Numbered from the stretch's first letter, positions 16,689 to 38,320 are shown. The stretch: DNA of 64,000 bases from Sneathiella sp. (GCA_039975135.1 JBDWHS010000002.1:41479-105478), one strand, 5' to 3'. Notes: a model not told the origin generated them from the letters alone. Translations and numbers: made by a program.

Positions 16689-17398
16689 CGGGAATCTCCT
16701 GTGGCACGAGGCACATCCTGATCCGGAACAGACCAGTCAATCGGTGTTTGATGGGTGCGTTCCAGATATTCGTTGGCTTTGGAAAAATGTCCATTGCCGA
16801 GGAACCCTCGATGCGCGGATAGTGGGGAGGGATGTGGACTTGTGAGAACCAGATGACGGTTCCGGTCAATAACCTTCCCTTTTTTTTGAGCATAGCTGCC
16901 CCAAAGCAGAAAAACCAGCCGGTCCCGCTCTTTATTCAAAGCAGAAACGACCGCGTCCGTAAACTCTTCCCACCCACGTCCCTGATGAGAGGCTGCTTTC
17001 GCCTGCTCGACAGTCAGGACGCTGTTCAAAAGAAGGACGCCTTGTTCAGCCCAGTTTTGTAAATTTCCGTGTTTTGGAATGGGAAGACCAAGGTCGCGAT
17101 TGATTTCCTTATACATATTCTGCAAGGAGGGAGGTGTTCGCACCCCGTCGCGGACTGAAAAGCTGAGGCCGTGTGCCTGCCCCGGTCCGTGATAGGGATC
17201 CTGACCAAGGATAACGACCTTCACTGTCTGAAAAGGTGTACAATCAAAAGCGGTGAAAATGTTTTTACCTTCTGGAAAAATAACTTTACCCGCACGTTTT
17301 TCCTGTTCGAGAAAGGCACGGAGGTTCTTCATGTGATCTTTTTCGAACTCGGAAGCCAGGACTTTAAGCCAGCTTTCCTCCAGTTTTATATCTGCCAC
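16685..17398 (-). CDS. ung: Uracil-DNA glycosylase (family 1)
   Basis: Motifs [22 protein letters not shown] and [11 protein letters not shown]. Overlaps the ugpQ start by 4 nt. Confidence 0.9.
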
Positions 17399-17523
17399 CC
17401 ATCCCCCATTTCAAGTTATCGGAACATCGTCCGAACTTCTGTCTTTATAACTGCATTATTGCGGTTTTATTATGAGAGGAGAAAGAAGAGAAGCAACTTT
17501 TTCCAATTATCCGGGCCTATGGC

Positions 17524-17569
17524 TTGACATTGGAAACAGATTTCTCAATATTGTTTGTATACATACAAA
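17524..17569 (+). promoter_or_regulatory. Sigma-70-like promoter (TTGACA-N17-AATATT) with overlapping palindromic operator TTTGTAT-AC-ATACAAA
   Basis: TTGACA at 17524-17529 and AATATT at 17547-17552. Inverted repeat 17554-17560 / 17563-17569. Lies 17-60 nt upstream of the first operon gene. Confidence 0.35.
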
Positions 17570-17585
17570 ATGAGGTCCGGGATAT

Positions 17586-18431
17586 ATGGGAGATTATTTT
17601 CGGCCGACAACACTGTCAGAGCTAGAGGGGCTGCTCACACGCGGTAACTTGACAGTACTTGCCGGAGGCACGGATTACTATCCTGCAAAAGTCGGAAAAC
17701 TGCTTGGGGAAGATATCCTTGATATTACGGCGGTTGACGGATTGCGCGGTATTCAGAAAACGAAGGAAGGATGGAGGATCGGTGCAACAACGCGCTGGTC
17801 TGATATCACCAGGAGCGATCTTCCGCCGCTGTTTGACGGTTTGAAGGCTGCGGCTCGTGAAGTAGGTGGCCAGCAAATTCAGAATTCAGGCACGATTGGC
17901 GGCAATCTGTGTAACGCTTCTCCAGCAGCGGATGGCGTGCCAGCACTCCTTAGCCTCGGGGCTGATGTTGAAATTTCCGGACCAACCGGTATGCAACGCC
18001 TCCCTCTTGAAACCTTCATTTTGGGAAACCGTAAAACAACGCTGGAGAAAACGGAAATCCTTTCAGCTCTCCATATACCAAATCCACTTTTTGAAAAGGC
18101 ATATGGCGCCTTCCTTAAATTGGGATCTCGCAAATATCTCGTCATTTCACTGGTGATGGTGGCTGGCACCTTCTGTCTTGATGCAGAAGGGCGCCTCGCG
18201 GATTGTAAAATCTCGGTCGGGGCTTGCTCGGAAGTGGCGAAGCGATTGGAAAGGCTTGAGCAGGATTTGATCGGCGCCTTTCCGACAGACGATCTGGCAG
18301 GATATGTGGTGGATACCCACCTGGCGGATTTATCGCCCATAGATGATGTTCGTGCGACGGCGGAGTATCGCTTGGAGGTCGCCAAGACACTTGTTCAGCG
18401 CATGCTGTCAGAATGGGGAGAGACTGTATGA
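17586..18431 (+). CDS. Xanthine dehydrogenase/CO dehydrogenase family, FAD-binding (medium) subunit
   Basis: CoxM-like motifs VLAGGTDYY and GTIGGNLCNASPAADG. 281 aa. Confidence 0.85.
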   Translation: MGDYFRPTTLSELEGLLTRGNLTVLAGGTDYYPAKVGKLLGEDILDITAVDGLRGIQKTKEGWRIGATTRWSDITRSDLPPLFDGLKAAAREVGGQQIQNSGTIGGNLCNASPAADGVPALLSLGADVEISGPTGMQRLPLETFILGNRKTTLEKTEILSALHIPNPLFEKAYGAFLKLGSRKYLVISLVMVAGTFCLDAEGRLADCKISVGACSEVAKRLERLEQDLIGAFPTDDLAGYVVDTHLADLSPIDDVRATAEYRLEVAKTLVQRMLSEWGETV

Positions 18432-21169
18432 GCAGGGCAATCGAACTGACTGTCAATGGTCAGAAGCATGTTCTAGATGTTCCGCCGGTCAAAAGACTGT
18501 CAGACATATTGCGCGATGATTTGAAACTGACCGGGACCAAAATCGGCTGTAATGCAGGAGATTGCGGAGCCTGCACGGTTATAATCGATGGCAAGCAGGT
18601 CTGCGCCTGTCTCACCCCGGTTGCGCAGGCGGCGGGAGCATCGGTTCTTACTGTTGAAGGATTGTCTGGAACAGAGGCACTGGGCTCGCTACAAAAAGCG
18701 TTCAGCCGCCACGGTGCTGCACAATGTGGTATCTGTTCCCCCGGTATGTTGATGGCAGCAACGAGTTTGCTGGATACAAAAAGTGACCCTACAAGGCGGG
18801 ATGTGGAAGATGCTTTAGGGGGTGTCCTGTGCCGTTGCACCGGATATCAGAAGATCGTTGATGCAGTGCTGGATGCGGCAGGTTCGGAGGCTTGCTTAGC
18901 GCCAGAGGCAGGCGAGGCCGTCGGGGCGTCCCTTGGAAAACTGGATGCGGCCGAAAAGCTGAACGGAACAGAGAAATATGGCGCCGATGCTATTCCAGAG
19001 GATGCATTATGGATCCGCATCCTAAGGTCCCCCCATGCTTCGGCAACGGTTGTACTGGGTGACTTTTCAGATGTTATTCAGGCGTATAATGGCCTTTATG
19101 ATGTCCTGACTTATAAAGACATACCGTTTAACCGGTTTGGCATCTATCCGGTGGGCAAGGATCAACCTGTTCTTTCAGATGGCGTGGTGCGCTATCGCGG
19201 CGATGCAGTGATTGCTGTTGTTGGAGCAAAAGAAGCCGTCACGGGCATCACGCTGGAGGATCTTCCGGTTTCCTTTGATATTCATGAACCGGTTGTCGGT
19301 GTTGCGGGCGCGCGATCTGCCGCAGCATATCAGCTGCATGAAGACAAACCCGGCAATGTATTGATTGAGGGGCATGTGGTGAAGGGAGATACAGCCGCAG
19401 GCTTTGAACAAGCGACTGCCATTGCGAACGGAACGTTTCAGACCCGCTTTGTTGAGCATGCTTATATCGAACCTGAAGCCGGGTGGGCACGGCGTGTTGG
19501 GGATCGGGTGGAAGTAACCGTGACGACACAGGCGGTTCACATGGATCGCGATGAGATTGCCAGTGTGTTACAAATCGATAAAGATCGGGTTCGGGTTATT
19601 CCAACCGCTGTGGGCGGAGGGTTCGGCGGTAAGCTGGATGTCTCCATTCAGCCTATTCTGGCGGTTGCTGCCATGAAATATGACCAGCCTGTTGCTTATG
19701 TTTATGAACGGCCGGAAAGCATGGCCGCCAGCACGAAGCGTCATCCATCAGAAGTGTCCAGTCGTTTTGCTGCGAATGAAAAAGGCGAATTGCTGGTGAC
19801 GGAATTGACCGCTGATTTCGATACAGGGGCCTACGCGTCCTGGGGACCGACGGTTGCAGGGCGCGTCCCGGTTCACGGAAGTGGTCCTTACTTTGTTCCT
19901 AATGCTGATGTTAAAGGACGCGGTTTGTTCACCAACGCACCGCCCTCCGGCGCATTCCGGGGGTTTGGCGTGCCACAAGCCGCTATCGCCCATGAATGCA
20001 TGATGGATGATCTGGCCGAAAAACTGGATATGGATCGGCTGGAAATCCGCTTAATCAACGCAATTCGGACAGGGCAGACAACAGCAACGGGCCAAATTCT
20101 GAAAGCGAGTGCGGGTATGGCGCCGTGCCTTGAAGAATTGAAGCCCAAATGGACGTTATTCAACGCTGAGGTGGCGGCTTTTAACGCTGAGAATGATGGC
20201 CCGTTGAGAAAAGGGGTCGGTGTTGGTGCCATGTGGTACGGTATCGGAAATACGTCCCTGTCCAATCCCTCCACACTGGAAGTGGGGATTGATGCGGACG
20301 GTCGGATCACGCTTTATAACGGTGCTGTGGATATTGGACAGGGTTCCAACACCATCATGCCGCAGATTTGTGCTGATGCAGCAGGACTGCCGGTGTCTCA
20401 ATTCACCTATATTATGGGGGACAGCGATCTGACTGAAGATGCGGGTAAGACATCCGCATCCCGCCAGACATTCGTCTCGGGCAAGGCATCGGAATTGGCC
20501 GGGCTCGATCTTCGCCGCCAAATCCTGCGCCATGCCAATGCAGGGGAGGGCGCCCGGTTTGTCCTTGACGGTAAAATACTGAAAATTGAAGATGAAGGCA
20601 GCGTCCGAGAAATTGATTTATCCTCTTTGCCAGAGGGTAAAAAAGGAAACGTATTCTTTGGAACGGGTACTTTTGATCCGCCGACAACTCCTCTCGATGA
20701 AAAAGGGCAGGGCGTACCGTATGCCACCTACGGGTTTGCAGCGCAAATTGCGTTGGTTGAAGTTGATACAGATCTGGGTACAACCAAAGTTCAGAAGATT
20801 GTTGCCGCCCATGATGTCGGCAAAGCCATTAATCCACAGCAAGTAGAAGGGCAGATCCATGGCGGAATTGCTCAAGGACTGGGGCTTGCCCTGATGGAAG
20901 AATTTATTCCAGGTGTCACCGAAAATCTGCATGACTATCTGATTCCGACCTTTGGCGATATGCCGGATATGGAAATCCTCATTGTGGAAGAAGAAGAACC
21001 TTTAGGGCCCTATGGCGCTAAAGGGGTGGGAGAACCTGGACTCGTTCCTACAGCCCCCGCTATTTTTGGGGCTATTCGTCATGCCACGGGCGTTCGCGTG
21101 ACAGAAGCACCCTTGCTCCCCCACAGACTGAAAGCGGCTCTACGCAGGAAGGAGGTCGATCATGAGTGA
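18428..21169 (+). CDS. Fused [2Fe-2S] (small) and molybdopterin-binding (large) subunit of an XDH-family hydroxylase
   Basis: ATGA start/stop overlap with the FAD subunit at 18428-18431. N-terminal GCNAGDCGACTV, CGICSPGM and CRCTGYQKI motifs, followed by about 750 aa of aldehyde-oxidase/XDH Mo-binding domain. Confidence 0.85.
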   Translation: MSRAIELTVNGQKHVLDVPPVKRLSDILRDDLKLTGTKIGCNAGDCGACTVIIDGKQVCACLTPVAQAAGASVLTVEGLSGTEALGSLQKAFSRHGAAQCGICSPGMLMAATSLLDTKSDPTRRDVEDALGGVLCRCTGYQKIVDAVLDAAGSEACLAPEAGEAVGASLGKLDAAEKLNGTEKYGADAIPEDALWIRILRSPHASATVVLGDFSDVIQAYNGLYDVLTYKDIPFNRFGIYPVGKDQPVLSDGVVRYRGDAVIAVVGAKEAVTGITLEDLPVSFDIHEPVVGVAGARSAAAYQLHEDKPGNVLIEGHVVKGDTAAGFEQATAIANGTFQTRFVEHAYIEPEAGWARRVGDRVEVTVTTQAVHMDRDEIASVLQIDKDRVRVIPTAVGGGFGGKLDVSIQPILAVAAMKYDQPVAYVYERPESMAASTKRHPSEVSSRFAANEKGELLVTELTADFDTGAYASWGPTVAGRVPVHGSGPYFVPNADVKGRGLFTNAPPSGAFRGFGVPQAAIAHECMMDDLAEKLDMDRLEIRLINAIRTGQTTATGQILKASAGMAPCLEELKPKWTLFNAEVAAFNAENDGPLRKGVGVGAMWYGIGNTSLSNPSTLEVGIDADGRITLYNGAVDIGQGSNTIMPQICADAAGLPVSQFTYIMGDSDLTEDAGKTSASRQTFVSGKASELAGLDLRRQILRHANAGEGARFVLDGKILKIEDEGSVREIDLSSLPEGKKGNVFFGTGTFDPPTTPLDEKGQGVPYATYGFAAQIALVEVDTDLGTTKVQKIVAAHDVGKAINPQQVEGQIHGGIAQGLGLALMEEFIPGVTENLHDYLIPTFGDMPDMEILIVEEEEPLGPYGAKGVGEPGLVPTAPAIFGAIRHATGVRVTEAPLLPHRLKAALRRKEVDHE

Positions 21170-22598
21170 GGCTATCCAGAAAACAGCCAATAAAGACGAT
21201 GGATTAATCCGCTGTGATGCCTGCCCGGTTTTGTGCCGTATTCGAGAAGGGCGCTCCGGCGCCTGTGATCGCTATGCGAATGTCGAAGGTGTCTTAACCC
21301 GTGTTGATCCGTTGATTGTGCTGGAAAATGCTGAAAAGAAGGTCCCGTTCACGGAGGCAAGCAGCCAGTGGAATGGGGATTTGGTACCAAAGGGCAATAC
21401 CTTTGTCACCGGCGTTGGATCTGGAACAACATACCCGGATTACAAGCCAGCCCCCTTTATTGTCGGTGCAGAGGCGCATGGCGTTGATACGGTAACCGTT
21501 GTGTCTGAGGGTGTGTTCAGCTATTGCGGCGTGAAAGTCAAAATTGATACAGACCGCTATGTTGGCCCGGAGACAGCACCTGTATTTGCTCAAGGTGAGC
21601 AGGTAGGGCATGTCACCACAGCCGAATATGGAAGCCAGATGCTTTCCTTGGGCGGCGTCCGCCATTTGACTGGCGGCTCCAAGAAAGAAGGTCGGATTAC
21701 GTGCGATACGCTGCTGGCTCTTTGCAACAAAGAAGCTGTCGAGCTTGATGTTGAAGGCGGCGCAAAAATCATTGTTCAGGCAGGTAAAGCACCGATCATC
21801 GACGGAGATGAAGAAGAGCGGATGCGGGTTGGTTGTGGTTCCGCGACCATTGGAATTTTTGCACCGCAATGGCACGGGAAGGTGGATGAGGTTATCGTTG
21901 TTGATGATCATATCACCGGTGTCCTGACAGAGCATCAGGCGGGTCAGTTTCTTGATATGCCCGTCTCCGGGATCAAGGTGCGTGGTCGTCGCTCAACCCC
22001 TGGACGGTATTTTCAAGTGGCCGAACATGGCGCAGGCTGGGGCGGGACGGATATTACCAATCCCCTTGATATTATTGAGAAAGTGGATGCCAAGAAAGCC
22101 CATCCCGGTATGACACTCCTGATGGTATCGACAACCGGACAGGATAGCGCCTGGTTCGTGTTGAATGACGATCTTGAGCCGGAAGCAGCGCCGATGCCGG
22201 ACGAAATCCGGCTGGTTGTTGACAGAATTGCAGAGAATTGTGAGCCCGCTCTGTGTACTGTTCTCTTTATGGCTGGAGCTGGAGGATCGCTCAGGGCCGG
22301 GGTCACCGAAAACCCGGTCAGATTGACACGATCTGTCAAGGATGCCTTAACTCGGGTAACCTGCGGCGGGGCGCCCGCCTATATCTGGCCGGGCGGTGGC
22401 ATCACCGTGATTGTCGACGTGATGCAAATGCCGGAAAACTCCTTTGGCTATGTGCCTACTCCTGCATTGGTTGCGCCCATAGAGTTTGCCATGACGCGAG
22501 ACGACTTTGAAGCACTCGGCGGTCATATGGAGAGTATCGTCTCACTGGATCAAGTGCTGGATCGCGATGCCCTTGTAAAGCTGAACGGCGAGCCTTGA
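21162..22598 (+). CDS. Cys4-motif protein, tentatively 6-hydroxynicotinate-reductase-like (assignment from memory, unverified)
   Basis: 478 aa; 8-nt overlap with the upstream gene. N-terminal C-x2-C-x3-C-x9-C (CDACPVLCRIREGRSGAC). No ferredoxin-type CxxCxxCxxxCP motif is visible. Confidence 0.5.
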   Translation: MSEAIQKTANKDDGLIRCDACPVLCRIREGRSGACDRYANVEGVLTRVDPLIVLENAEKKVPFTEASSQWNGDLVPKGNTFVTGVGSGTTYPDYKPAPFIVGAEAHGVDTVTVVSEGVFSYCGVKVKIDTDRYVGPETAPVFAQGEQVGHVTTAEYGSQMLSLGGVRHLTGGSKKEGRITCDTLLALCNKEAVELDVEGGAKIIVQAGKAPIIDGDEEERMRVGCGSATIGIFAPQWHGKVDEVIVVDDHITGVLTEHQAGQFLDMPVSGIKVRGRRSTPGRYFQVAEHGAGWGGTDITNPLDIIEKVDAKKAHPGMTLLMVSTTGQDSAWFVLNDDLEPEAAPMPDEIRLVVDRIAENCEPALCTVLFMAGAGGSLRAGVTENPVRLTRSVKDALTRVTCGGAPAYIWPGGGITVIVDVMQMPENSFGYVPTPALVAPIEFAMTRDDFEALGGHMESIVSLDQVLDRDALVKLNGEP

Positions 22599-22601
22599 CC
22601 C

Positions 22602-23471
22602 ATGGCAGGTGAAGCAACAGCACGATTGATGGAAGATGGACGAAGGCTTCACCTTCAGCATGGTCCCATTGATATTGTTGCTGAAGCTTTTGGTGCGGCT
22701 GATGAAATTGAAGCTGCCTACAATCAAGGTTGGGCGGCCTTTCAGTCAATTCTTGGAACTCTGGTACAGGATCTCGGTATCTTGAGGCGGCCTGTCATGA
22801 TAGACGAAGAGCCTGTTTTAAATGGGATTTCTGCCGATATGTGGCTGTCCGCACGCCCCTTTGCCGATAGGCAATTTGTAACGCCAATGGCGGCGGTTGC
22901 CGGGGCGGTTGCCGATCACGTCAAGGCAGCCATGATAGATGGGCGAAGCCTCACGAAACTTTATGTGAATAATGGCGGTGATATTTCACTTCATTTGAAG
23001 GCGAATGCTGTTTTCTCCGGCGCTATTGTCGAAAATCAGGATATGCCTGCGCTGGATAATATCTTTGAAATTAGGAGCAAGGATGACATCGGCGGTGTTG
23101 CGACATCGGGCTGGCGTGGCCGGTCGCTTTCCCCCGGGATGGCGGATGCCGTTACCGTGCTTGCAAAAACTGCGGCCATTGCGGATGTTGCTGCAACCCT
23201 GATTGCGGGAGCTGTGGTTGTAAAAAGTGCCGCGGTCACTCAGGAGAAGGCAATTGATCTGAGAGACGATACGGATTTGGGTGATATGCTCGTAACGACG
23301 GCGGTTGGCACGCTAACAGCTGCAGAAAAACATGAAGCCCTTGAAAAAGGGTTTCAACTTGCTCGCTCTTTTGAGCAAGAAGGATGGATAAAATCGGCCT
23401 ATATGGCCTTACAGGGGGAGGCAAAAAGCCTTGCTCCGGAAAAAGAACAATTGGGAAGGAAAACGGCATGA
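22602..23471 (+). CDS. UPF0280-like protein (ApbE-like fold suspected)
   Basis: 289 aa; starts 3 nt after the upstream stop. N-terminal LHLQHGPIDIV resembles what I recall of UPF0280. Not verified. Confidence 0.5.
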   Translation: MAGEATARLMEDGRRLHLQHGPIDIVAEAFGAADEIEAAYNQGWAAFQSILGTLVQDLGILRRPVMIDEEPVLNGISADMWLSARPFADRQFVTPMAAVAGAVADHVKAAMIDGRSLTKLYVNNGGDISLHLKANAVFSGAIVENQDMPALDNIFEIRSKDDIGGVATSGWRGRSLSPGMADAVTVLAKTAAIADVAATLIAGAVVVKSAAVTQEKAIDLRDDTDLGDMLVTTAVGTLTAAEKHEALEKGFQLARSFEQEGWIKSAYMALQGEAKSLAPEKEQLGRKTA

Positions 23472-24055
23472 CTGATTTGGTAAAAGTGCGGAAAATATCC
23501 ACACAGATTGAGGAGATCTATCACGAGGGCGGGCCTGTGCTGGATAATCCGATCCTGCGGGGTTCCATTGTTGCTGTTGTCAGCAATCCTTATGCCGGCC
23601 GATATGTTGAGGACATTACCCCTTTTATGGAAGCCTTGAAACCATTGGGCTTGAAGGTTGCAAAGCAACTAATTGATGCGCTGGGCGGTGATCTTGGGAA
23701 AATCTGTAGCTATGGAAAAGGCGCTATTGTCGGAGAAGACGGCGAAATGGAACATGGGGCGTGTTGGCATGTTGCCGGTGGCTATGCCATGCGGGAAGCT
23801 TTGGGAGAGGCGTTGGCAATTGTACCGTCTTCCAAAAAAGTATCAGGGGTTGGCAGCCGGTTGGAGATTCCCACCACCCATAAAGATGCCTCTTATGTAC
23901 GCAGTCATTTCGATGCCATGGAAGTGGGACTGTCCGATAGTCCGCGCCGGGGAGAAATTCTATTTGCTCTGGTTATGACAACTGGAGGGCGCCCACATGC
24001 GCGTCTCGGCGGCTTAGCGGCTGAAGATATCTCTGCAAAAGACGGTTTGCGTTAA
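23468..24055 (+). CDS. 'Amino acid synthesis' family (AA_synth/DUF1185-like) protein
   Basis: ATGA overlap at 23468-23471. 195 aa. Recognisable segments NPYAGRYVEDI, YGKGAIVGEDGEMEHGA, THKDASYVRSHFD, GGRPHARLGG. Confidence 0.6.
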   Translation: MTDLVKVRKISTQIEEIYHEGGPVLDNPILRGSIVAVVSNPYAGRYVEDITPFMEALKPLGLKVAKQLIDALGGDLGKICSYGKGAIVGEDGEMEHGACWHVAGGYAMREALGEALAIVPSSKKVSGVGSRLEIPTTHKDASYVRSHFDAMEVGLSDSPRRGEILFALVMTTGGRPHARLGGLAAEDISAKDGLR

Positions 24056-24077
24056 TCAGATAAGGTGGACGGCACGT

Positions 24078-26111
24078 ATGACAGGTAGAGTAATTGGCGT
24101 CGATGTGGGCGGGACTTTTACGGATCTGATTTCCGTTGATACGGAAACCCGGGAAGTTTCAGTAACCAAAGTTCCGACAACGCTGGATAATCAGGCTTTT
24201 GGTGTGATTAAAGCCATTGAAAATGTGGGTACGGAACTTTCCGAGGTTGTCGCTATCAATCATGGAACAACCACGACGACGAATGCTTTGCTCGAGCGCA
24301 AGATTGCCAAGGTTGGTCTCATTACCACCCGGGGTTTTCGGGATGTCCTGGAGCTTGGCCGTCGAACCCGCCCGCAGCCTTACGGCTTGAAGGGACAGTT
24401 TGAGCCGCTGATTTCCCGCGAATATCGCCTGGAAGTACCGGAGCGTATTGATGCCGACGGAAATATTGTTATCCCGTTGGATGAAGGCGCGCTTAGATCA
24501 GCCATTCAACAGTTAATTGAAGCGGGGGTAGAAAGTCTTGTCCTGCATTTCCTTCACTCCTACAAAAATCAGTCCCATGAAGCGCGGGCGTTGGAAATTG
24601 CCAAGGAAATGTGGCCCAATCGGTTTGTGACGGCGGGCCATGAAATTCTTTCGGAATATCGGGAATATGAACGCGGCACGACAGCAGCCATTAACGGCGC
24701 AATCAGACCTGTTCTGGATCGTTATATCAACCGGCTGCAAGATGAACTGACCCAGCAAGGTTTTGCTCATGATTTGCTTGTCATGCAGGGGAATGGCGGG
24801 AGTATCTCGTCCCGTATTGTGGCAGAAAGCGCTGTAAATACGGTGATGTCGGGCCCTGCCTCTGGTGTGATGGCCGCGGCAGCAACCTGCCGGGCAGCCG
24901 GTATCGATAAAGTCATCACCTATGATATGGGCGGTACAAGTTCGGATGTGGGGTTGGTGCAGGGCGGCGTTCCGCAAGTCACGGCGGAGCTGGATTTGGA
25001 ATATGGTATGCCGATCCATGTGCCGATGGTTGATGTGCATACCATCGGGGCGGGCGGTGGTTCCATCGCCTTTGTCAATGATGCGGGAATGCTGCAGGTC
25101 GGGCCGGAAAGTGCAGGGGCAACGCCCGGGCCCATTTGTTATGGCCGGGGCGGCACGCGCCCGACCATTACGGATGCCAATCTGGTTCTGGGCAGGCTGG
25201 ACGCTGAAAAGTTACTGGCTGTGGATAGTCCTGTGTCTCTTGATCAAATTAAAGAGCTGTTTGTCAGTGAAATCGGTCATCATTTTGGGATGAATGCGGA
25301 AGAAGTTGCGACAGCCATTCTGCAAGTTGCCAATAACAAGATGGCTGGAGCGATCCGCATGGTTAGCCTATCCAGAGGGCATGACCCTCGGGACTTCGCC
25401 CTTTTTGCTTTTGGAGGGGCAGGACCATTGCATGGTGTGGCCCTGGCTAAAGAATTGGCAATCCCCCGAATTGTTATGCCGGCAAGGCCAGGCATTACCA
25501 ATGCGCTGGGCTGCGTTGTTTCTGATTTACGTCATGACTTCGTGAAAACGGTCAACACGCCGCTATCATTGGTCAATATTACTGAGGTTCAGGCCATTAT
25601 CCGGGAACAGATTGAAGAAGGTAAAAGGCGGATCGAGCGGGATCGAGTTGCGGTTGAGGCGTTGGTCTATATTTTTTCCGCTGATATGCAATTTCAGGGG
25701 CAGAGCCACATGCTGAGTGTTGAAATCAGCGGCCCAGACGTGACATTGGATGAACTACAGAAACGGTTTGATGAGGTGTACTGGGCGCGCTTCGCGGTGG
25801 AGCTGCCGGATATCAAAGCTGTGCTTGTCAATCTTCATACCGCGGTTATCGGTCGGCGCGAACAGCTGGATTTACAGGTTCTCGTCGGAAGTAGTCAGAA
25901 AAACACGCTTGCAGAAGCCATGCGGACAAAGCGTTCTGTCATGTTCGGCGGAACCTGGCATGATACACCGATTTACCGGCGCGGGGATTTGCCTAAATCC
26001 CTGACATTGACGGGCCCGGCCATCATTGAACAACTGGACACAACCATCATCGTTGAGCCGGGTGACAAGATGACCGCTGATGCCATTGGCAATCTGATTG
26101 TGGAGGTATGA
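24078..26111 (+). CDS. hyuA: Hydantoinase/oxoprolinase family, A (ATP-binding) subunit
   Basis: N-terminal VIGVDVGGTFTDLI. 677 aa. Internal MGGTSSDV actin-fold ATPase motif. Confidence 0.9.
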   Translation: MTGRVIGVDVGGTFTDLISVDTETREVSVTKVPTTLDNQAFGVIKAIENVGTELSEVVAINHGTTTTTNALLERKIAKVGLITTRGFRDVLELGRRTRPQPYGLKGQFEPLISREYRLEVPERIDADGNIVIPLDEGALRSAIQQLIEAGVESLVLHFLHSYKNQSHEARALEIAKEMWPNRFVTAGHEILSEYREYERGTTAAINGAIRPVLDRYINRLQDELTQQGFAHDLLVMQGNGGSISSRIVAESAVNTVMSGPASGVMAAAATCRAAGIDKVITYDMGGTSSDVGLVQGGVPQVTAELDLEYGMPIHVPMVDVHTIGAGGGSIAFVNDAGMLQVGPESAGATPGPICYGRGGTRPTITDANLVLGRLDAEKLLAVDSPVSLDQIKELFVSEIGHHFGMNAEEVATAILQVANNKMAGAIRMVSLSRGHDPRDFALFAFGGAGPLHGVALAKELAIPRIVMPARPGITNALGCVVSDLRHDFVKTVNTPLSLVNITEVQAIIREQIEEGKRRIERDRVAVEALVYIFSADMQFQGQSHMLSVEISGPDVTLDELQKRFDEVYWARFAVELPDIKAVLVNLHTAVIGRREQLDLQVLVGSSQKNTLAEAMRTKRSVMFGGTWHDTPIYRRGDLPKSLTLTGPAIIEQLDTTIIVEPGDKMTADAIGNLIVEV

Positions 26112-26112
26112 T

Positions 26113-27840
26113 ATGAAAGAACTGGATCCGATTACCCTCGCGGTTATTCAAAATGGCCTTATTCAGGTATGCAACGAAATGGATTTGGCCTTTGTTCGGT
26201 CTGCATTCAGTCCGGTGATTTCTGAAGCGCTTGATCGCTCTGACGGCATTTATGCTGCAGAGACCGGGGAGTTGATTGCCCAAGGTGAATTGGGGTTGCC
26301 GATTTTTGTTGGCACCATGCAGTTTTCTACTCAAGCCGTTATCGAGCGGGCGAAGGATGTAAAACCCGGTGATATCTACATCGTCAATGATCCTTATCTG
26401 GGTGGCACCCATTTGATGGACGTTAAATTTGTCCGACCTTTCTTCTACAAGGGGAAGCTCTGGTCGTGGCTTGCCAATACGGGGCATTGGCCAGACTTGG
26501 GCGGATCTGTGCCCGGTGGTTTCTCTGCCAACGCCACAGAAGTGGAGCAGGAGGGCTTGCGTTTGCCACCGGTCAAGCTCTTTAAAGAAGGCGTTCTGGA
26601 TGAGGAGATCCTCTCGATTATCCTGTCCAATATCCGAATTGCCGATCAACGGATCGGGGATATCAAAGCGCAGGCTGCTGCCCTCTCGATTGGAGAGCAG
26701 CGTCTGACGGATCTTCTGGATCGATATGGCGAGGATGTTGTCAGTCGTTCCATCAAAGAGCTCAAAGCCCGAGCCAGCGAGCAAATGTCAGCCAAGATCG
26801 CTGACATCCCGGACGGTACCTATCAGGGAACCGCCTACGTGGATTCCGACGGCGTTGTGGATGAGCCGCTTAAAATTGATATGCAGGTGATCTCTAAAGG
26901 CGGAGAACTGCATTTTGACATGTCCGGTTCCAGCGCGCCCTGTATGGGGCCGATGAATTCTGTCCTGGCAACAACAAAGTCATCTATCTACCTGGCGATA
27001 AAGCATATTTTTCCTGAAGTGCCGATTAATGCTGGCACATTTGAGCCGCTTAAAATTAAGGATCCTGACGGCACATTCCTCTATGCTAAATATCCGAGGC
27101 CGGTTTCCGGTTGTGCGGCGGAAGTCAGTCAGCGGATCGCTGAAGCTGTTTTCAATGCATTGGTTGATGTTATTCCAGATTTGCTGTTTGCAGCCCCCGC
27201 CGGGACATCCGGTAATCTGGCCGTGGGCGGCTACGACCCTGACAAAGACAAAGCCTATGTGATGTATGTGATTTCAGGTGGTGGTTACGGTGGATACAAG
27301 GAAGGTGACGGGCTTTCCAACGGCTGTTCTACGATCGGTATTTCCAAGACCACTCCGATTGAAGTCATGGAGCAGTATTATCCTGTATTGTTCGAAGAAT
27401 ATTCCCTGCATGAAGGGTCCGGCGGAGCGGGTGAATATCGCGGCGGCTTTGGTGTTAACTACAAGATCCGTTTGCGCCGCGGCCATGCGAGAGCATCCAT
27501 GGTGATGGATCACGGTCGGTATGGACCTCTGGGGGCTTTGGGGGGGCTGGATGGTGGCATCAACAAAGTGGCTGTTTATTCCAATGGCCAGTCCTATATA
27601 CCACCGCATCTTTCCAAAGATCAGGATATCCAGATTGAGGTTGGAGACAGTATTGCAGTCTCCACGCCAGGCGGCGGCGGTTTTGGCGCTGCCTTTGATC
27701 GTAACCCTGAGACTGTTGCGAGAGATGTCAGGCGCGGCTATTACTCAGCGGACCAGGCGGCAGACCGGTTTGGTGTCGTTCTGGAACCGGATGGTTCCGT
27801 TGCTGAACACCAAACACGGCAAAAGCGTCTTAAAACCTGA
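26113..27840 (+). CDS. hyuB: Hydantoinase B/oxoprolinase family, B subunit
   Basis: ATG lies 1 nt after the hyuA stop. N-terminal LDPITLAVIQNGL. 575 aa. Confidence 0.9.
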   Translation: MKELDPITLAVIQNGLIQVCNEMDLAFVRSAFSPVISEALDRSDGIYAAETGELIAQGELGLPIFVGTMQFSTQAVIERAKDVKPGDIYIVNDPYLGGTHLMDVKFVRPFFYKGKLWSWLANTGHWPDLGGSVPGGFSANATEVEQEGLRLPPVKLFKEGVLDEEILSIILSNIRIADQRIGDIKAQAAALSIGEQRLTDLLDRYGEDVVSRSIKELKARASEQMSAKIADIPDGTYQGTAYVDSDGVVDEPLKIDMQVISKGGELHFDMSGSSAPCMGPMNSVLATTKSSIYLAIKHIFPEVPINAGTFEPLKIKDPDGTFLYAKYPRPVSGCAAEVSQRIAEAVFNALVDVIPDLLFAAPAGTSGNLAVGGYDPDKDKAYVMYVISGGGYGGYKEGDGLSNGCSTIGISKTTPIEVMEQYYPVLFEEYSLHEGSGGAGEYRGGFGVNYKIRLRRGHARASMVMDHGRYGPLGALGGLDGGINKVAVYSNGQSYIPPHLSKDQDIQIEVGDSIAVSTPGGGGFGAAFDRNPETVARDVRRGYYSADQAADRFGVVLEPDGSVAEHQTRQKRLKT

Positions 27841-27859
27841 TCATGGACTTTCGGCTAAT

Positions 27860-27897
27860 CGCTGCCAAGGGGATTTCAATCAATTCCCTTGGCAGCG
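27860..27897. terminator. 12-bp perfect hairpin between convergent operons (no U-tract)
   Basis: CGCTGCCAAGGG (27860-27871) and CCCTTGGCAGCG (27886-27897), 14-nt loop. Sits between the hyuB stop and the dctM stop. Confidence 0.45.
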
Positions 27898-27924
27898 GTC
27901 TAATGACGCTACATTTAAGCGCCG

Positions 27925-29304
27925 TTACTTTGTTATCACCTCAGGGCCCATCACTGCATTTGGCAGCACTGTTGAAATCCATGGCACGTAAGTGACCAAA
28001 ATCAGGAACACAAACATAATTGCCAGGAATGGAAGTGCGGCACGGAAAATGCCCATCATCGACATATTGGCGACACCAGCAGTCACGAACAGGTTCAGGC
28101 CCACTGGTGGTGTTATCATGCCGATTTCCATATTCACCACCATGATGATGCCCAGATGAATTGGGTCAATACCAAGTTCCATGGCGATGGGAAAGACCAG
28201 AGGTGCGACGATAACCAGCAACCCGCTTGGTTCCATGAACTGGCCGCCGATCAACAAGATGACATTGACAATAATCAGGAACATAATCGGGCCAAAGCCA
28301 TAAGCCAGCATTGTCTGGGTGATCTGCTGAGGGATCTGTTCATCGGTAATGACATGTTTTAGGATCAACGCGTTTGCGATCACAAACATCAAAGTGATGA
28401 TCAGTTTGCCTGCATCGCGCAAAGTCCGCATTGTGTCTTTATGCCAGAAAGCCGTGATAAGCATTTGCGGGTTGCGCAGGATAGAACCTCCCTCCGCCAA
28501 CGGACCCATATCCCTATAGACGAATGTTGCAACAAGAAAGGCATAAACAGACGCAACGGCAGCAGCCTCAGTCGGGGTGAAAATCGCCCCGGTAACGCCT
28601 GGAATGCCATAAATACCAACCATGATGATGACGATCAGCATAAGGCCCCATACGGCTTCTCTAAAGCTTGCCCAAATCTCTCCGAAACCTTTGAAATCTC
28701 CCGCAGGCATGTTTTTGACCCGCGCCATAATGTAAATGCCGATCATTAGCATGGTGCCAGCAAGCAAACCTGGAATAACGCCCGCAAGGAACATGCGCCC
28801 CACAGAGACTTCAACAGCGGCAGCATAGACCACCATGACAATGGACGGTGGTATAAGGATACCGAGTGTGCCGGCATTTGCGATGACACCAGCTGCAAAT
28901 TCTTTCGTATATCCAACCTGCCGCATGGCAGCGATAACAATGCTGCCAATTGCAACAACCGTCGCTGGGGATGATCCGGATAGGGCGGCAAAAATCATGC
29001 AGGCAAGGACGCCAGCAATCGCGAGACCACCCCGTATATGTCCCACAAGCGCAATTGAAAATCGGATAATCCGCTGGGCTACGCCTCCGGTGGACATGAA
29101 GCTGGACGCTAAAATGAAGAAGGGGATAGCCAGTAGCGTTGAATGTCCTTCAAAGGCCTCAAATAATGTTTGGGCAACTGAAGCGAGCGAGCTGTCCGAA
29201 AACAGCAGCAGGAATGATATGGATGAAAAGCCAAGCGCAACTGCAATCGGCACTCCGGCAAGCATCAGTCCGATGACCAGAATGAAAAGAAGAAGAATTT
29301 CCAT
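27925..29304 (-). CDS. dctM: TRAP transporter large permease
   Basis: 459-aa polytopic ORF. Its start overlaps the dctQ stop by 1 nt. Confidence 0.9.
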   Translation of the reverse strand: MEILLLFILVIGLMLAGVPIAVALGFSSISFLLLFSDSSLASVAQTLFEAFEGHSTLLAIPFFILASSFMSTGGVAQRIIRFSIALVGHIRGGLAIAGVLACMIFAALSGSSPATVVAIGSIVIAAMRQVGYTKEFAAGVIANAGTLGILIPPSIVMVVYAAAVEVSVGRMFLAGVIPGLLAGTMLMIGIYIMARVKNMPAGDFKGFGEIWASFREAVWGLMLIVIIMVGIYGIPGVTGAIFTPTEAAAVASVYAFLVATFVYRDMGPLAEGGSILRNPQMLITAFWHKDTMRTLRDAGKLIITLMFVIANALILKHVITDEQIPQQITQTMLAYGFGPIMFLIIVNVILLIGGQFMEPSGLLVIVAPLVFPIAMELGIDPIHLGIIMVVNMEIGMITPPVGLNLFVTAGVANMSMMGIFRAALPFLAIMFVFLILVTYVPWISTVLPNAVMGPEVITK

Positions 29305-29975
29305 CAGTCCTGTTCTTTCAGTTTGTTGGCAGCTTTTGTTACATCTTCTTCAGCTTCATGGCTGACAATCAACAACTCCGCCTGGCCCTTCCATACTCGC
29401 AAGCCGGCTTGTGCAAATCGAAAAACCAGGAGGAGCATTGAAACAGGTAAAACCAGGTAGGGAACAAGCTTGGGCATTTTTTCATAGGCTTCTCCCTCAT
29501 TGAATATATCAGCGAGCCAGGTGAGGAAGAATGGAACTGGAATATCCTGCGTTTCATACCAACCTTGCCCGCGGAATTTCTCTACAAAGCCGGTCGGGAA
29601 CAACCTGCCTTCGGTTGGTGGCAGGTTGGCGTATGGTGCCCAATAGTCCCATGCGCCCTTCAATAAAAGCAGAGAATAAATTAGACAAACTGCAACCACG
29701 AACAAACCTAATCCGCGTTTGATGCGAGGAGAGAAAAACGCGACAATCGCATCAACGCCTAAATGCAGGGTCTTTTTTACGGCATAACTCGCCCCTAGCA
29801 GCACCAGCCAGGCAAACAGGAAAACTGTAAGTTCAAGCGCGTAAAATATATTGGAATTGAAAACATAACGAGCAACGACATTGGCAAATGTAGTCAGTGT
29901 CATGATGCCAAGAAGGACCGAAATAACCGTTTCTTCAATACGGTCAAATCGACTGTAAAATTGTATAGACTTCAT
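29304..29975 (-). CDS. dctQ: TRAP transporter small permease
   Basis: 223 aa, 4 TM helices, positioned between dctP and dctM. Confidence 0.85.
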   Translation of the reverse strand: MKSIQFYSRFDRIEETVISVLLGIMTLTTFANVVARYVFNSNIFYALELTVFLFAWLVLLGASYAVKKTLHLGVDAIVAFFSPRIKRGLGLFVVAVCLIYSLLLLKGAWDYWAPYANLPPTEGRLFPTGFVEKFRGQGWYETQDIPVPFFLTWLADIFNEGEAYEKMPKLVPYLVLPVSMLLLVFRFAQAGLRVWKGQAELLIVSHEAEEDVTKAANKLKEQD

Positions 29976-29992
29976 AATGTCTTCACCTTGGC

Positions 29993-30025
29993 GAAAACTC
30001 GAGGGCCGACACGCGTCGGCCCTCG
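29993..30025 (-). terminator. Attenuator/terminator hairpin between dctP and dctQ
   Basis: 11-bp stem CGAGGGCCGAC / GTCGGCCCTCG (30000-30010, 30015-30025), 4-nt loop. On the minus strand it is followed by AGTTTTC. Confidence 0.5.
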
Positions 30026-30052
30026 CTTATTCGCAAAGAGATTTCAGGGAGA

Positions 30053-31057
30053 TTATTTGCTCATCGCATTGATTTTTTGAGCCGCGTCGATATTTTCCTG
30101 ACCGACATCCTTGGCAAATTTAGCCCATACAGGCTTCATTACATCGACCCAAGCCTGACGTTGGTCGGCTGTCAAAACAACGACTTTACCACCCGCATCA
30201 ACAATAGCTTTCTTGGCACCCTCATTGACGGTAGTCGATTCTTTGTTTCGTGTTGCAGTCACCTCAGAAACAATTGTCAGAAATTGTCCCCGTACATCTG
30301 CTGGCAGGCCGTCGAGCCAATCAACAGACGTCACCAAAAGATAATCGATAATGCCGTGGTCCGTCTGAGTAACGCCATCCTGCACTTCGAAAAACTTCTT
30401 GCCATAGATGTTTGACCAGGTATTTTCCTGACCATCAACAACACCCTGTTGCAGCGCGCCATAAACTTCTGAGAAGGCCATTTTTTGCGGGCTGCCGCCA
30501 ATCGCCTCCATCTGGGCAACCAGAACGTCTGAAGATTGAACGCGGAATTTCAGGCCATTGGCGTCGGTCGGCGCAACAAGGGGTTTGTTAGCAGACATTT
30601 GCTTCATGCCATTATGCCAATAAGCGAGGCCCTGCAAACCACGTTTTTGCATACTGTCGAGCATGCCTTGGCCCGCATCTGATGCCTGAAACGCTTCAAC
30701 CGCGTTGATGTCCTTGAACATGAACGGCAAATCGAAGATGCGGAATTTCTTGGTGAATTTTTCAAACTTTGAAAGTGAAGGTGCTGCGAGTTGAACGTCA
30801 CCTTGTAACATTGCTTCAAGAACTTTGTTGTCATTATAGAGCGTGGAGTTTGGGAAAACTTCCATGCACATCTTACCGTTCATTTCAGCGTTCACACGTT
30901 TTTCCAACAATGTGGCTGCAATACCTTTAGGATGCTTGTCAGTGTTGGTAACATGGCTGAATTTGACGACAATTTCTCCTTCATCGCAAGCAGCGAAAGC
31001 AGCAGATGACGTCGAAACAAGTGCCACAACACATGCGGTCTTTAAAAGGGTCTTCAT
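30053..31057 (-). CDS. dctP: TRAP C4-dicarboxylate-type periplasmic binding protein
   Basis: Start trimmed to MKTLLKTACVVALVSTSSAAFA (GGGAGGA RBS 7 nt upstream). Strong resemblance to canonical DctP (IFDLPFMF, YWHNGMKQMSANKP, LKFRVQ). Confidence 0.9.
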   Translation of the reverse strand: MKTLLKTACVVALVSTSSAAFAACDEGEIVVKFSHVTNTDKHPKGIAATLLEKRVNAEMNGKMCMEVFPNSTLYNDNKVLEAMLQGDVQLAAPSLSKFEKFTKKFRIFDLPFMFKDINAVEAFQASDAGQGMLDSMQKRGLQGLAYWHNGMKQMSANKPLVAPTDANGLKFRVQSSDVLVAQMEAIGGSPQKMAFSEVYGALQQGVVDGQENTWSNIYGKKFFEVQDGVTQTDHGIIDYLLVTSVDWLDGLPADVRGQFLTIVSEVTATRNKESTTVNEGAKKAIVDAGGKVVVLTADQRQAWVDVMKPVWAKFAKDVGQENIDAAQKINAMSK

Positions 31058-31209
31058 AGGGTTTCCTCCCGGTTTGCGGCGCTTTCTTGCACCATTAATA
31101 TCATTCAAACCATTTGAGCGAGATAGCTCAACCCCAATTAATGAGAAAATTAGTTTGTACAATAAAACAATACGCTAACAGAAAGTTGAAGCTGGATTAG
31201 GCAAATTAA

Positions 31210-31223: not shown

Positions 31224-31289
31224 CAATTTTCTTGCCAGGAATGGCTGAACAATTCTACTTATAATTCTCAATCCTGGAGCTTGCCTGTC

Positions 31290-32951: not shown

Positions 32952-33550
32952 TAGCCAAAGTTCTGGTCATTGAAGACGATGCTGTGCTGCGTGACTCCAT
33001 TGTGCAGTCGCTTGAACTTGAAGATCTGGAACCTATTCCAATGGGTAGTTTTATTCAGGCTCGCAGATCCATCCGATCGAACTTCAGAGGGGTTGTTCTG
33101 TCGGATATCAGGATGCCAGGCCATGACGGATTTGATGTGTTGCGCTTTGCACAGGCGCGCGACCCTGAATTGCCCATAATTTTACTGACCGGGCATTCCG
33201 ATGTTGCGACCGCCATGAAAGCTATCAAGGAAGGAGCTTATGATTATCTTGAAAAGCCATGTGACCCGGACCGTCTCACAGACACACTTCGCAGAGCATT
33301 GGAGCATCGAATGCTGGTTCTGCAAAACCGTCTCTATCGTGACGAACTAGACGCTCAAAAAACAAATATAGTCTCAGGCACCTTGGCAGAACAATTGGAG
33401 TATCACGAACGCAAGGCCATTGAGCAAGCGCTTGCGGCCGAAAACGGAAAAGTTGCGCAGGCGGCCCAACGCTTGGGTATTCCGCGTAACACCCTTTATG
33501 ACCACATGACCCGTTTACGAATAGTCGCAAAAGCATTTCGCTCGAATTGA
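32948..33550 (+). CDS. DctD-like response regulator lacking the sigma-54 AAA+ central domain (REC plus Fis-type HTH only)
   Basis: GTGA overlap with the kinase stop. 200 aa. REC motifs VLSDIRMPGHDG, LLTGHSD, YLEKP, joined directly to C-terminal HTH QAAQRLGIPRNTLYDHM. Confidence 0.8.
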   Translation: MIAKVLVIEDDAVLRDSIVQSLELEDLEPIPMGSFIQARRSIRSNFRGVVLSDIRMPGHDGFDVLRFAQARDPELPIILLTGHSDVATAMKAIKEGAYDYLEKPCDPDRLTDTLRRALEHRMLVLQNRLYRDELDAQKTNIVSGTLAEQLEYHERKAIEQALAAENGKVAQAAQRLGIPRNTLYDHMTRLRIVAKAFRSN

Positions 33551-34587: not shown

Positions 34588-35435
34588 TTTCGACCTCCCA
34601 GAATGCCTTCAGGTCTGAGACGGATCACAAGAATTGCCAGAATAAAAACAGCGATTTGGGCAGCCACCGGAGAGATCCAGACAGTCAGCAGGCTGTTTGC
34701 GCCGCCGACAACGGACCCTCCAACAACAACGCCGGCAAGAGGGCCTGCACCGCCCACAAGGATGGATAGGAAGCCGGGGATCAGGTAGCCAAGCCCCATT
34801 TGCGGATCAACGCTGATCGTGGGCGCAATCAGGGCACCGGCGAGACCGGCGAGAGCCGTGCCGATCACAAAACTCCAACGATATAACCGGCGGGTATTGA
34901 TCCCAAGCGTTGCCGCTGTATCCGGTCTTGCGATAACAGCGCGGGCCTGCAAGCCAAAATCCGTCTTCAGGAAAATCCAGAAAGTACCGCCGATGAGCAG
35001 AAGGGCGGCGAGCATGACAAGCGTTCGGTAGAGAGGGTAGGAGAAATTACCGATCGTGATCATATCATTGATCGGGCTGGCAATGCTTTGAGATTCAGGG
35101 CCAAACAGGAGCACGATGCCTTGTTTCAAGGCGATGGAAAGGCCCCATGTGGCGAGGATGGTGTCCAGGGGGCGCAGATAGATGTGCCGTATGAGCAGCA
35201 CTTCAATCAATAGCCCGAGAAGCCCCACAATGGCAGGGGCGAGTATAAGTCCCGCGATGAAGGGCAAGCCTGCAGATTGACAGACGACCATCACATAGGC
35301 GCCGATCATGAACAGCTCTCCATGCGCCATGTTGATGACGCCCATCATGCCAAAGACAATCATCAGACCAAGTGCAATCAGGACCAGGATCAGGATGTAA
35401 GATGTCGCATCAATAAAAGGCAGTAGAATATCCAT
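34584..35435 (-). CDS. HAAT-family ABC permease, LivH-like
   Basis: 283-aa polytopic ORF in an operon with the two ATPases. Confidence 0.85.
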   Translation of the reverse strand: MDILLPFIDATSYILILVLIALGLMIVFGMMGVINMAHGELFMIGAYVMVVCQSAGLPFIAGLILAPAIVGLLGLLIEVLLIRHIYLRPLDTILATWGLSIALKQGIVLLFGPESQSIASPINDMITIGNFSYPLYRTLVMLAALLLIGGTFWIFLKTDFGLQARAVIARPDTAATLGINTRRLYRWSFVIGTALAGLAGALIAPTISVDPQMGLGYLIPGFLSILVGGAGPLAGVVVGGSVVGGANSLLTVWISPVAAQIAVFILAILVIRLRPEGILGGRK

Positions 35436-35443
35436 GTCGCCCC

Positions 35444-38295: not shown

Positions 38296-38320
38296 TAGCT
38301 GCTTGAGAGAAGGATGATCG

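Follow-up and report, generated by a model that had tools for sequence, protein, structure and literature searches.

In Eubacterium barkeri, the nicotinate gene cluster (ndhFSLM, hnr, ena) encodes a nicotinate hydroxylase of the xanthine dehydrogenase (XDH) family followed by 6-hydroxynicotinate reductase (Hnr). In organisms other than the one studied here, the cyclic enamide 1,4,5,6-tetrahydro-6-oxonicotinate (THON) is opened by a metal-dependent enamidase. To our knowledge, the proteobacterial reductive nicotinate route, whose physiology has been described in Azorhizobium, has never been genetically dissected or tied gene by gene to enzymes. A related cluster is conserved in Azorhizobium caulinodans (AZC_2790-2804), Bradyrhizobium (blr3818-3830), Rhodopseudomonas and strain SG-6C (PMC3511419, Fig. 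4), and its core, including two unknown proteins, was noted in Proteobacteria in 2012 (PMC3511419) and, as cited in that paper, already by Alhapel et al. in 2006. Here we analyzed a seven-gene operon in a 64,000-nucleotide stretch of Sneathiella sp. DNA (GCA_039975135.1 JBDWHS010000002.1:41479-105478; the whole stretch is referred to as the window). The operon shares with E. barkeri the order of an XDH-family hydroxylase followed by Hnr, but it carries genes for HyuA- and HyuB-type proteins (together HyuAB) and no enamidase. Our analysis suggests that it probably encodes a route from nicotinate through THON to 2-formylglutarate in which HyuAB acts as the ring opener.

All seven open reading frames (ORFs) lie on the + strand and span 17586-27840, as seen in the ORF listing and by direct reading of the junctions (FAD, flavin adenine dinucleotide; FeS, iron-sulfur; Mo, molybdenum; aa, amino acids; nt, nucleotides):
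17586-18431, + strand, gene 1, FAD subunit, 281 aa
18428-21169, + strand, gene 2, fused FeS-Mo subunit, 913 aa
21162-22598, + strand, gene 3, Hnr homolog of the short proteobacterial form, 478 aa
22602-23471, + strand, gene 4, UPF0280, 289 aa
23468-24055, + strand, gene 5, AA_synth/DUF1185, 195 aa
24078-26111, + strand, gene 6, HyuA-type subunit, 677 aa
26113-27840, + strand, gene 7, HyuB-type subunit, 575 aa

An earlier note on this DNA had described seven coupled coding sequences on one strand, and all six junctions read exactly as it claimed. Genes 1 and 2 overlap by ATGA (18428-18431), genes 2 and 3 by the 8 nt ATGAGTGA (21162-21169), and genes 4 and 5 again by ATGA (23468-23471). Gaps of 3 nt (22599-22601), 22 nt (24056-24077) and 1 nt (26112) separate genes 3 and 4, genes 5 and 6, and hyuA and hyuB, respectively. 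Purine-rich, Shine-Dalgarno-like stretches are found ahead of six of the seven starts. The starts at 23468 and 26113, neither of which is the first in-frame start codon, match where Pfam or PDB alignments begin, and the start at 18428 was placed solely by its Shine-Dalgarno-like stretch and the ATGA overlap. Every one of the seven ORFs has a highly significant family match, which marks them as genuine genes instead of chance ORFs. The best homologs are from Sneathiella (Alphaproteobacteria), with at most 89% identity among named genomes.

Gene 3 is a clear homolog of Hnr and is predicted to reduce 6-hydroxynicotinate to THON. Its family is named 6-hydroxynicotinate reductase by both NCBI and JGI. 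Profile and pairwise searches revealed full-length similarity to Hnr, including 44% identity over 466 aa (E = 2e-130) with Hnr from Thermanaeromonas toyohensis (P0521) and shared Cys motifs, which upholds the earlier note's suggestion that the 478-aa protein is a 6-hydroxynicotinate reductase homolog. A Bradyrhizobiaceae homolog has been reported to be 42% identical to E. barkeri Hnr (PMC3511419). Judged by gene content, the T. toyohensis locus (L161) represents the full E. barkeri nicotinate fermentation gene set. It encodes FAD and FeS subunits and a Mo subunit split into proteins of 428 and 329 aa, a split characteristic of E. barkeri NdhL/NdhM. We also observed a 387-aa amidohydrolase (enamidase), Hnr, UPF0280, AA_synth, a 2-(hydroxymethyl)glutarate-dehydrogenase-like protein (Hgd), a serine-dehydratase-like protein (Hmd), a B12-binding mutase, a PrpF-family isomerase, MutL, an isocitrate-lyase-family lyase and an aconitase-family protein. 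The core of hydroxylase subunits, enamidase-type amidohydrolase, Hnr and UPF0280 recurs in two more anaerobe loci (L162 and L163). The window shares the hnr-UPF0280-AA_synth triad with the T. toyohensis cluster. It differs from the E. barkeri cluster in its Mo subunit, which is unsplit and fused to the FeS domain, in an Hnr without the 2x[4Fe-4S] domain, and in having no downstream fermentation genes (Hgd, Hmd, B12 mutase and others).

We then assessed the HyuA and HyuB proteins. HyuA was matched by the Pfam models Hydant_A_N (298 bits), Hydantoinase_A (176 bits) and Hydant_A_C (38 bits), and HyuB by Hydantoinase_B (530 bits, E = 1e-158). Among PDB entries, HyuA matched N-methylhydantoinase 7HK5 (461 bits) and chain A of 6YRA (396 bits), which was deposited as 5-oxoprolinase; HyuB matched 6YRA_B (293 bits) and 7HK5 (254 bits). 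We take 6YRA to be the caprolactamase of Pseudomonas jessenii. The HyuA translation contains two DxGGT motifs, GVDVGGTFTD and TYDMGGTSSD, presumably ASKHA-type phosphate-binding (ATPase) motifs. Both motifs, the two-subunit architecture and the full-length Pfam domains are as in the HyuA/HyuB family (7HK5, 6YRA, 5-oxoprolinase). Relatives of HyuAB hydrolyze five-, six- and seven-membered lactams (5-oxoprolinase, OplBA and caprolactamase), and THON, the proposed substrate, is a six-membered lactam like valerolactam, on which the ATP-dependent valerolactamase OplBA of P. putida acts. HyuA and HyuB scored 508 and 344 bits against the NCBIfam equivalogs of caprolactamase CapA/CapB, well below the cutoff of 1000, and are related to caprolactamase but not caprolactamase themselves. 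A carboxylase function was also rejected, because scores were lower against acetone and acetophenone carboxylases than against ATP-dependent ring hydrolases. Orthologs in genomic and metagenomic Hnr loci were 56-84% (HyuA) and 63-88% (HyuB) identical. Unlike characterized HyuA/HyuB proteins, those of the window belong to a separate clade, 63-88% identical internally, that is tied to Hnr clusters; the proposed THON substrate would be new for the family.

To compare HyuAB with enamidase, we used 80 genomic loci around Hnr homologs (64-72% identity to gene 3), each limited to ±10 kb. The loci were scored by tblastn using the seven window proteins and one enamidase ortholog as queries; this replaced ORF calling, which gave many spurious antisense ORFs in loci of high guanine-cytosine (GC) content. 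The enamidase query matched the E. barkeri enamidase structure 2VUN over its full length (E = 1.6e-113). We observed that the gene order FAD, FeS-Mo, Hnr, UPF0280 was nearly universal. An enamidase ortholog was present in 22 of the 80 loci, HyuA and/or HyuB orthologs (56-78% identity) were present in 22, and no locus had both (P = 2e-4, one-sided Fisher test). The same was true of the 40 loci with full flanks, where 16 had enamidase, 14 had HyuAB and none had both (P = 8e-5). On a neighbor-joining tree of Hnr, enamidase- and HyuAB-type loci were interleaved, with at least 11 parsimony switches. Because of this interleaving, the exclusion does not come from one ancient split, and the HyuAB-type Hnr is not a separate subfamily. 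The tree topology argues for repeated replacement instead of a separate substrate-specific lineage. Within the 64-kb window, tblastn with the enamidase ortholog found no enamidase homolog.

We also performed the reverse test using the 80 closest metagenomic HyuB homologs (74-88% identity), 30 of which had a full 10-kb upstream flank. Hnr was beside HyuB in 26 of these 30 loci, and three more carried the ABC transporter of the cluster. Enamidase was absent from the flanks of all 80 metagenomic loci. The gene order of the window was found in four of them (L081, L082, L083 and L085). These data (the exclusion with enamidase, the interleaved tree and the linkage of HyuB to Hnr) suggest that HyuAB is most likely an ATP-dependent lactamase for THON. 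The earlier note had placed HyuAB in the position of enamidase; the strict mutual exclusion in 80 Hnr loci and the reverse test agree with that, and the conserved neighborhoods point to nicotinate, not to purines or hydantoins. Exceptions to this otherwise tight linkage are few: loci L104, L123, L160, L150 and L152 contain HyuB proteins that are 75-78% identical and no recognizable HyuA and/or Hnr in the available flank; high GC content made ORF calling unreliable in these loci.

Genes 1 and 2 are predicted to encode the medium subunit and the FeS-Mo subunit of a nicotinate 6-hydroxylase. Gene 1 matched Pfam FAD_binding_5 (E = 2.9e-38) and CO_deh_flav_C (E = 6.3e-15), and gene 2 matched Fer2, Fer2_2, Ald_Xan_dh_C, MoCoBD_1 and MoCoBD_2. 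Together they hold the complete XDH-family domain set, including the a/b hammerhead, with E values from 2.4e-07 (Fer2) to 9.6e-72 (MoCoBD_1). The FAD, two [2Fe-2S] and molybdopterin domains were all matched at full length, as expected for the XDH-type hydroxylase named in the earlier note. The gene 2 translation contains a GVGEPG motif (context YGAKGVGEPGLVP), and we take its Glu (GxGEP, C-terminal) to be the catalytic Glu typical of hydroxylases, unlike the active-site loop of carbon monoxide dehydrogenase. Gene 2 matched chains A, B and D of E. barkeri nicotinate dehydrogenase (3HRD) at 266, 225 and 125 bits. By this rough sum over chains (616 bits), nicotinate dehydrogenase would be the closest solved relative; the best single PDB chain scored 409 bits. 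Gene 2 reached no NCBIfam equivalog cutoff. In most of the 80 genomic loci, orthologs of gene 1 (45-57% identity) were ~3.6 kb upstream of Hnr and orthologs of gene 2 (51-65% identity) directly upstream of it.

The Bradyrhizobium loci L078 (5739-9263) and L080 (− strand) contain no FAD/FeS-Mo hydroxylase. Their hydroxylase is instead a molybdopterin and cytochrome c protein of ~1174 aa plus a small FeS protein, of the NicAB type. These loci resemble the window in Hnr (66-67% identity) and differ in combining an enamidase ortholog with the NicB-type Mo/cytochrome c hydroxylase (1174 aa), where the window has HyuAB and FAD/FeS-Mo proteins. Because a NicAB-type protein stands in place of FAD/FeS-Mo in Bradyrhizobium, the first pathway step, too, has been swapped between lineages.

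In the proposed pathway, the FAD and FeS-Mo proteins would hydroxylate nicotinate at C6 to give 6-hydroxynicotinate, and Hnr would reduce the ring of this product to the cyclic enamide THON. HyuAB would then phosphorylate or activate, and hydrolyze, the six-membered THON lactam at the expense of ATP, yielding 2-(aminomethylene)glutarate, which would hydrolyze to 2-formylglutarate and ammonia. The later steps after 2-formylglutarate are not encoded in the operon. In Azorhizobium, these steps were reportedly found by Kitts and colleagues in 1992 to be decarboxylation and oxidation to glutarate.

Several points weigh against this pathway. The support is all in silico, for the Sneathiella operon and for HyuAB-type clusters alike, and the nicotinate specificity of the fused Mo hydroxylase is predicted from its conserved adjacency to Hnr. 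T. toyohensis Hnr, from an E. barkeri-type cluster, served as a proxy for E. barkeri Hnr in our comparison, and gene 3 is without the N-terminal 2x[4Fe-4S] ferredoxin-like domain of characterized Hnr and lacks CxxCxxCxxxCP motifs. Because the loci share ancestry, the Fisher P values overstate independence. Neither enzyme was found in 36 of the 80 Hnr loci, many of which are truncated contigs, but 10 of which have full flanks. A survey of ±10 kb per locus leaves room for an enamidase elsewhere in a HyuAB-type genome, including that of the Sneathiella window. HyuB homologs without a nearby Hnr also occur, in L150, L152 and L160 (full upstream flank) and in L104 and L123.

The last three points would fit a nicotinate/THON pathway in which a distant enamidase or other hydrolase opens THON and HyuAB acts on a different lactam, such as a side product, a 5-oxoproline-like compound or a downstream cyclic intermediate. 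The 10 of 40 full-flank loci with neither enzyme nearby imply that the enzyme for the third step may be encoded far from hnr, and our view of the Sneathiella genome spans 64 kb; the HyuB homologs that occur without Hnr are few. Enamidase and HyuAB never occurred together in the 80 genomic and 80 metagenomic loci, although the Hnr tree requires at least 11 switches; such a pattern would be difficult to account for if the two enzymes did not do the same job. Moreover, the operon holds hyuA and hyuB in tight translational packing, and the HyuB clade is linked to Hnr in 26 of the 30 informative loci. We consider this alternative unlikely. HyuAB-type clusters could instead degrade another N-heterocycle (a pyridine carboxylate, a substituted 2-pyridone or a nicotinamide-derived compound), so that the swap reflects a different reduced lactam. 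Such a difference in chemistry is hinted at by AA_synth, which is kept in 21 of 22 enamidase-type loci vs. 9 of 22 HyuAB-type loci (P = 2e-4). Nicotinate as the substrate of the fused FeS-Mo type is itself a prediction for a protein below every NCBIfam equivalog cutoff, and an amide-type transporter and an isochorismatase-like hydrolase are also encoded in the locus. A nicotinamidase, however, would simply feed nicotinate into the pathway. The Hnr (66-72% identity), FAD and FeS-Mo proteins of both locus types are equally similar to those of the window and interleaved on the Hnr tree, and the same hydroxylase type accompanies enamidase and HyuAB alike. This reading appears quite improbable to us.

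The best single PDB match of HyuA, N-methylhydantoinase, raises the question of a creatinine/N-methylhydantoin or general hydantoin pathway. HyuAB would then be an N-methylhydantoinase, the isochorismatase an N-carbamoylsarcosine amidase, and the Mo enzyme and the 478-aa protein unrelated neighbors. The isochorismatase family does include N-carbamoylsarcosine amidase, yet the only specific matches of the isochorismatase-like protein, although weak, are to nicotinamidase. Among the larger window ORFs scanned with Pfam, the flanks contained no creatininase, creatinine deaminase or sarcosine oxidase. All seven genes are translationally coupled, and the HyuB clade shows a specific linkage to the genes for Hnr and the Mo hydroxylase. 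With these pathway genes not found in the flanks and HyuB tied to Hnr clusters, we rejected the hydantoin reading, which has very little chance of being correct. HyuAB as the opener of THON remains our preferred reading.

Two architectures of Hnr were observed: a long form in anaerobes, with the 2x[4Fe-4S] domain, and a short form without it in Proteobacteria. The short form is common to all close gene 3 homologs listed. The family comprises >8000 clusters at 90% identity, the best 120 of which are all at least 70% identical to gene 3, so the short form is unusually conserved. In an exhaustive HMMER search, proteobacterial Hnr collapsed to essentially one 50%-identity cluster, making this a narrow family. 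The next relatives (~505-520 aa, 40-45% identity) have the extra N-terminal 2x[4Fe-4S] ferredoxin domain, and alignment with P0125-P0143 showed that gene 3 begins ~50 residues later than long-form Hnr. These alignments indicate loss of the ferredoxin-like domain from proteobacterial Hnr. In long and short forms alike, Cys-x2-Cys-x3-Cys-x9-Cys (Cys18, 21, 25 and 35) is invariant and Cys225 (GCGSA) is nearly invariant. Purified E. barkeri Hnr was reportedly found by Alhapel and colleagues in 2006 to contain two [4Fe-4S] clusters, one [2Fe-2S] cluster and a covalently bound flavin. Gene 3 was matched by no Pfam model, including any flavin domain, and had no PDB relative; its AlphaFold model was poor (predicted local distance difference test score, pLDDT, 63.5) and returned only noise in Foldseek.

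Genes for the alpha and beta subunits of a 2-oxoacid:ferredoxin oxidoreductase adjoin hnr in eight loci (L001, L005, L023, L039, L046, L047, L128 and L130), with an additional pyridine-nucleotide-disulfide oxidoreductase in L001, L005, L023, L046 and L128. In several of these eight loci, the ferredoxin oxidoreductase pair occupies the place of the Mo-hydroxylase genes. This pair may supply reduced ferredoxin to Hnr in aerobes. We also observed rare natural fusions (P0130 and P0132, 969-982 aa) of a GltD-like NADPH oxidoreductase with a C-terminal Hnr module; the JGI name of P0130 is [quoted passage not shown]. The fusions suggest that certain organisms can couple Hnr to NADPH. Both the ferredoxin oxidoreductase neighbors and the GltD-like fusions fit a need of Hnr for low-potential electrons.

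The two proteins encoded at the center of the operon, UPF0280 and AA_synth, correspond in our locus survey to the two unknown proteins of the published proteobacterial cluster. The earlier note had called the product of 22602-23471 UPF0280-like, and it scored 310.7 bits against NCBIfam NF003322, above the cutoff of 290. Homologs carry Pfam PF27030 "AbpE_bact" and the JGI family name "ApbE superfamily". The AlphaFold model (pLDDT 92) matched DVU1097/DUF375 first in Foldseek, followed by the flavin transferases ApbE, Ftp and FmnB, with a probability of ~1 and E values of 6e-5 to 1e-3, but template modeling (TM) scores of only 0.35-0.5. The Pfam ApbE model (PF02424) weakly matched 22 of 40 UPF0280 relatives (best E = 6.8e-4); none of the 40 reached the Pfam threshold, and the window protein had no match to this model. 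A sequence-profile search of the PDB with UPF0280 found DVU1097 only and no ApbE. UPF0280 may resemble the ApbE/Ftp flavin transferases in predicted fold, and differs from them in its low TM scores, in falling below the Pfam threshold and in being cytoplasmic vs. extracytoplasmic.

UPF0280 was beside Hnr in 65 of the 67 loci with enough downstream sequence and was also present in anaerobe clusters. With its putative ApbE-like fold, it would most likely be a maturation factor or partner of Hnr. A role in Hnr flavin attachment or maturation is attractive because of the covalent flavin reported for E. barkeri Hnr and because UPF0280 follows hnr from Firmicutes to Proteobacteria; we propose this role tentatively. 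Canonical ApbE-type threonine flavinylation of Hnr was rejected because no [ST]GA[ST] flavinylation motif is conserved in Hnr, where only "GAC" (Cys35) and "GCGSA" (Cys225) are conserved.

The product of 23468-24055, which the earlier note took to be AA_synth-like, matched Pfam PF06684 over profile positions 1-175 of 175 (E = 3e-68, 229 bits), and it matched PDB entries 3BYQ (E = 5e-60) and 2QTP (E = 5e-48). The fold of DUF1185 is Bacillus chorismate-mutase-like, and the amino-acid role from which the family takes its name was inferred mainly from neighboring Liv-type ABC transporter genes (PMC2954203). In Hnr loci, such Liv-type genes represent the cluster's own putative nicotinate transporter. 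Because these genes belong to the cluster, the name "amino acid synthesis" (PF06684) is probably a context artifact. AA_synth tracks enamidase closely, often adjoining it in enamidase-type loci, and HyuAB more loosely, and it occurs in the Thermanaeromonas anaerobe cluster (L161), which suggests a role within the first three steps that is tied to ring opening. AA_synth/DUF1185 would then assist ring opening or deamination as an accessory protein. We also considered a joint proposal in which the Hnr-linked HyuAB clade is a new ATP-dependent THON lactamase that has repeatedly displaced enamidase in aerobes, UPF0280 is a cytoplasmic ApbE-like flavin factor of Hnr, and AA_synth is an accessory of enamide opening or deamination and not an "amino-acid synthesis" protein. 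That all of its parts hold together is doubtful.

Two signals border the operon:
17524-17552, + strand, promoter-like site TTGACA-17 nt-AATATT, 34 nt 5′ of the first start codon, candidate only
27860-27897, no strand assigned, stem-loop with a 16-bp stem, −39.1 kcal/mol, z = −6.1

The promoter-like element claimed upstream of the operon is present and is the best consensus match in 17300-28100 (10/12), but such matches are not more frequent there than in shuffled sequence (8 found vs. 9.1 expected). It is a plausible operon promoter. The downstream hairpin, given in the earlier note as 12 bp, is also present, although its 16-bp stem makes it stronger than claimed. None of 200 shuffles folded as well. 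The stem-loop has no T-run and was not called by the terminator scan; it lies between the end of hyuB and the convergent dctM, and is likely a bidirectional terminator or a stabilizer of the mRNA end.

The following features lie downstream of the operon:
27925-29304, − strand, TRAP transporter dctM
29304-29975, − strand, TRAP transporter dctQ
30053-31162, − strand, TRAP transporter dctP
31281-33550, two-component system, a histidine kinase/Fis-type response regulator pair
33616-38295 region, − strand, Liv/Urt-type ABC transporter with two permeases and two ATPases (Pfam, NCBIfam)
37129-38295, + strand, UrtA-like (amide-type) binding protein (Pfam, NCBIfam)
38321-39052, + strand, isochorismatase-family hydrolase, 243 aa (Pfam Isochorismatase, E = 1e-18)

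In the closest relatives of the operon (L081 and L082), the ABC transporter, the UrtA-like protein and the isochorismatase directly follow hyuB and are 66-91% identical to those of the window. Homologs of the ABC transporter are found next to the L061 and L093 clusters as well. The ABC transporter, a probable uptake system, and the nicotinamidase-like gene (33616-39052) are likely parts of the locus. The only specific matches of the isochorismatase, both weak, were to the nicotinamidase/pyrazinamidase PncA (PDB 3PL1, E = 1e-5; NF008623, E = 2.5e-6, below cutoff). Homologs (66-80% identity) are beside Hnr clusters in L081-L083, L088, L089, L091 and L036, and an isochorismatase gene is inside the deltaproteobacterial cluster L162. 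A reasonable inference is that this protein is a candidate nicotinamidase, with nicotinamide uptake and deamidation feeding the pathway; nicotinamide would then be an entry substrate.

In the window, the TRAP transporter (27925-31162) and the two-component system (31281-33550) separate hyuB from the transporter/isochorismatase module, which looks like an insertion in the window or a deletion in L081/L082. A dctM gene is also at the head of the deltaproteobacterial nicotinate cluster L162. Upstream of an ABC transporter operon, two adjacent + strand ORFs (362 and 350 aa; 47415-49559) had no Pfam match at E ≤ 1e-5.

Among the papers that our literature search covered, none links hydantoinase, oxoprolinase or hyuA to bacterial hydroxynicotinate catabolism. 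The HyuAB substitution occurs widely and has, to the extent of this search, gone undescribed. The earlier note had proposed an uncharacterized degradation route; the HyuAB substitution is new, whereas the core cluster with both unknown proteins has been known since 2006/2012.

Nicotinate and nicotinamide are ubiquitous nitrogen-rich nutrients, and this type of locus is very common: Hnr forms >8000 clusters at 90% identity, and about half of the classifiable loci use HyuAB. At present, the Hnr-linked HyuAB genes are annotated only as "hydantoinase/oxoprolinase". If HyuAB is the ring opener, it would represent a new substrate class for ATP-dependent lactamases, with biocatalytic interest for lactams, and a clean case in which an ATP-driven enzyme has displaced a non-orthologous metallohydrolase. 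It would also provide testable functions for two families with crystal structures, DUF375/UPF0280 and DUF1185, and would lead to corrected pathway reconstructions in many Proteobacteria of soil, freshwater and marine habitats.

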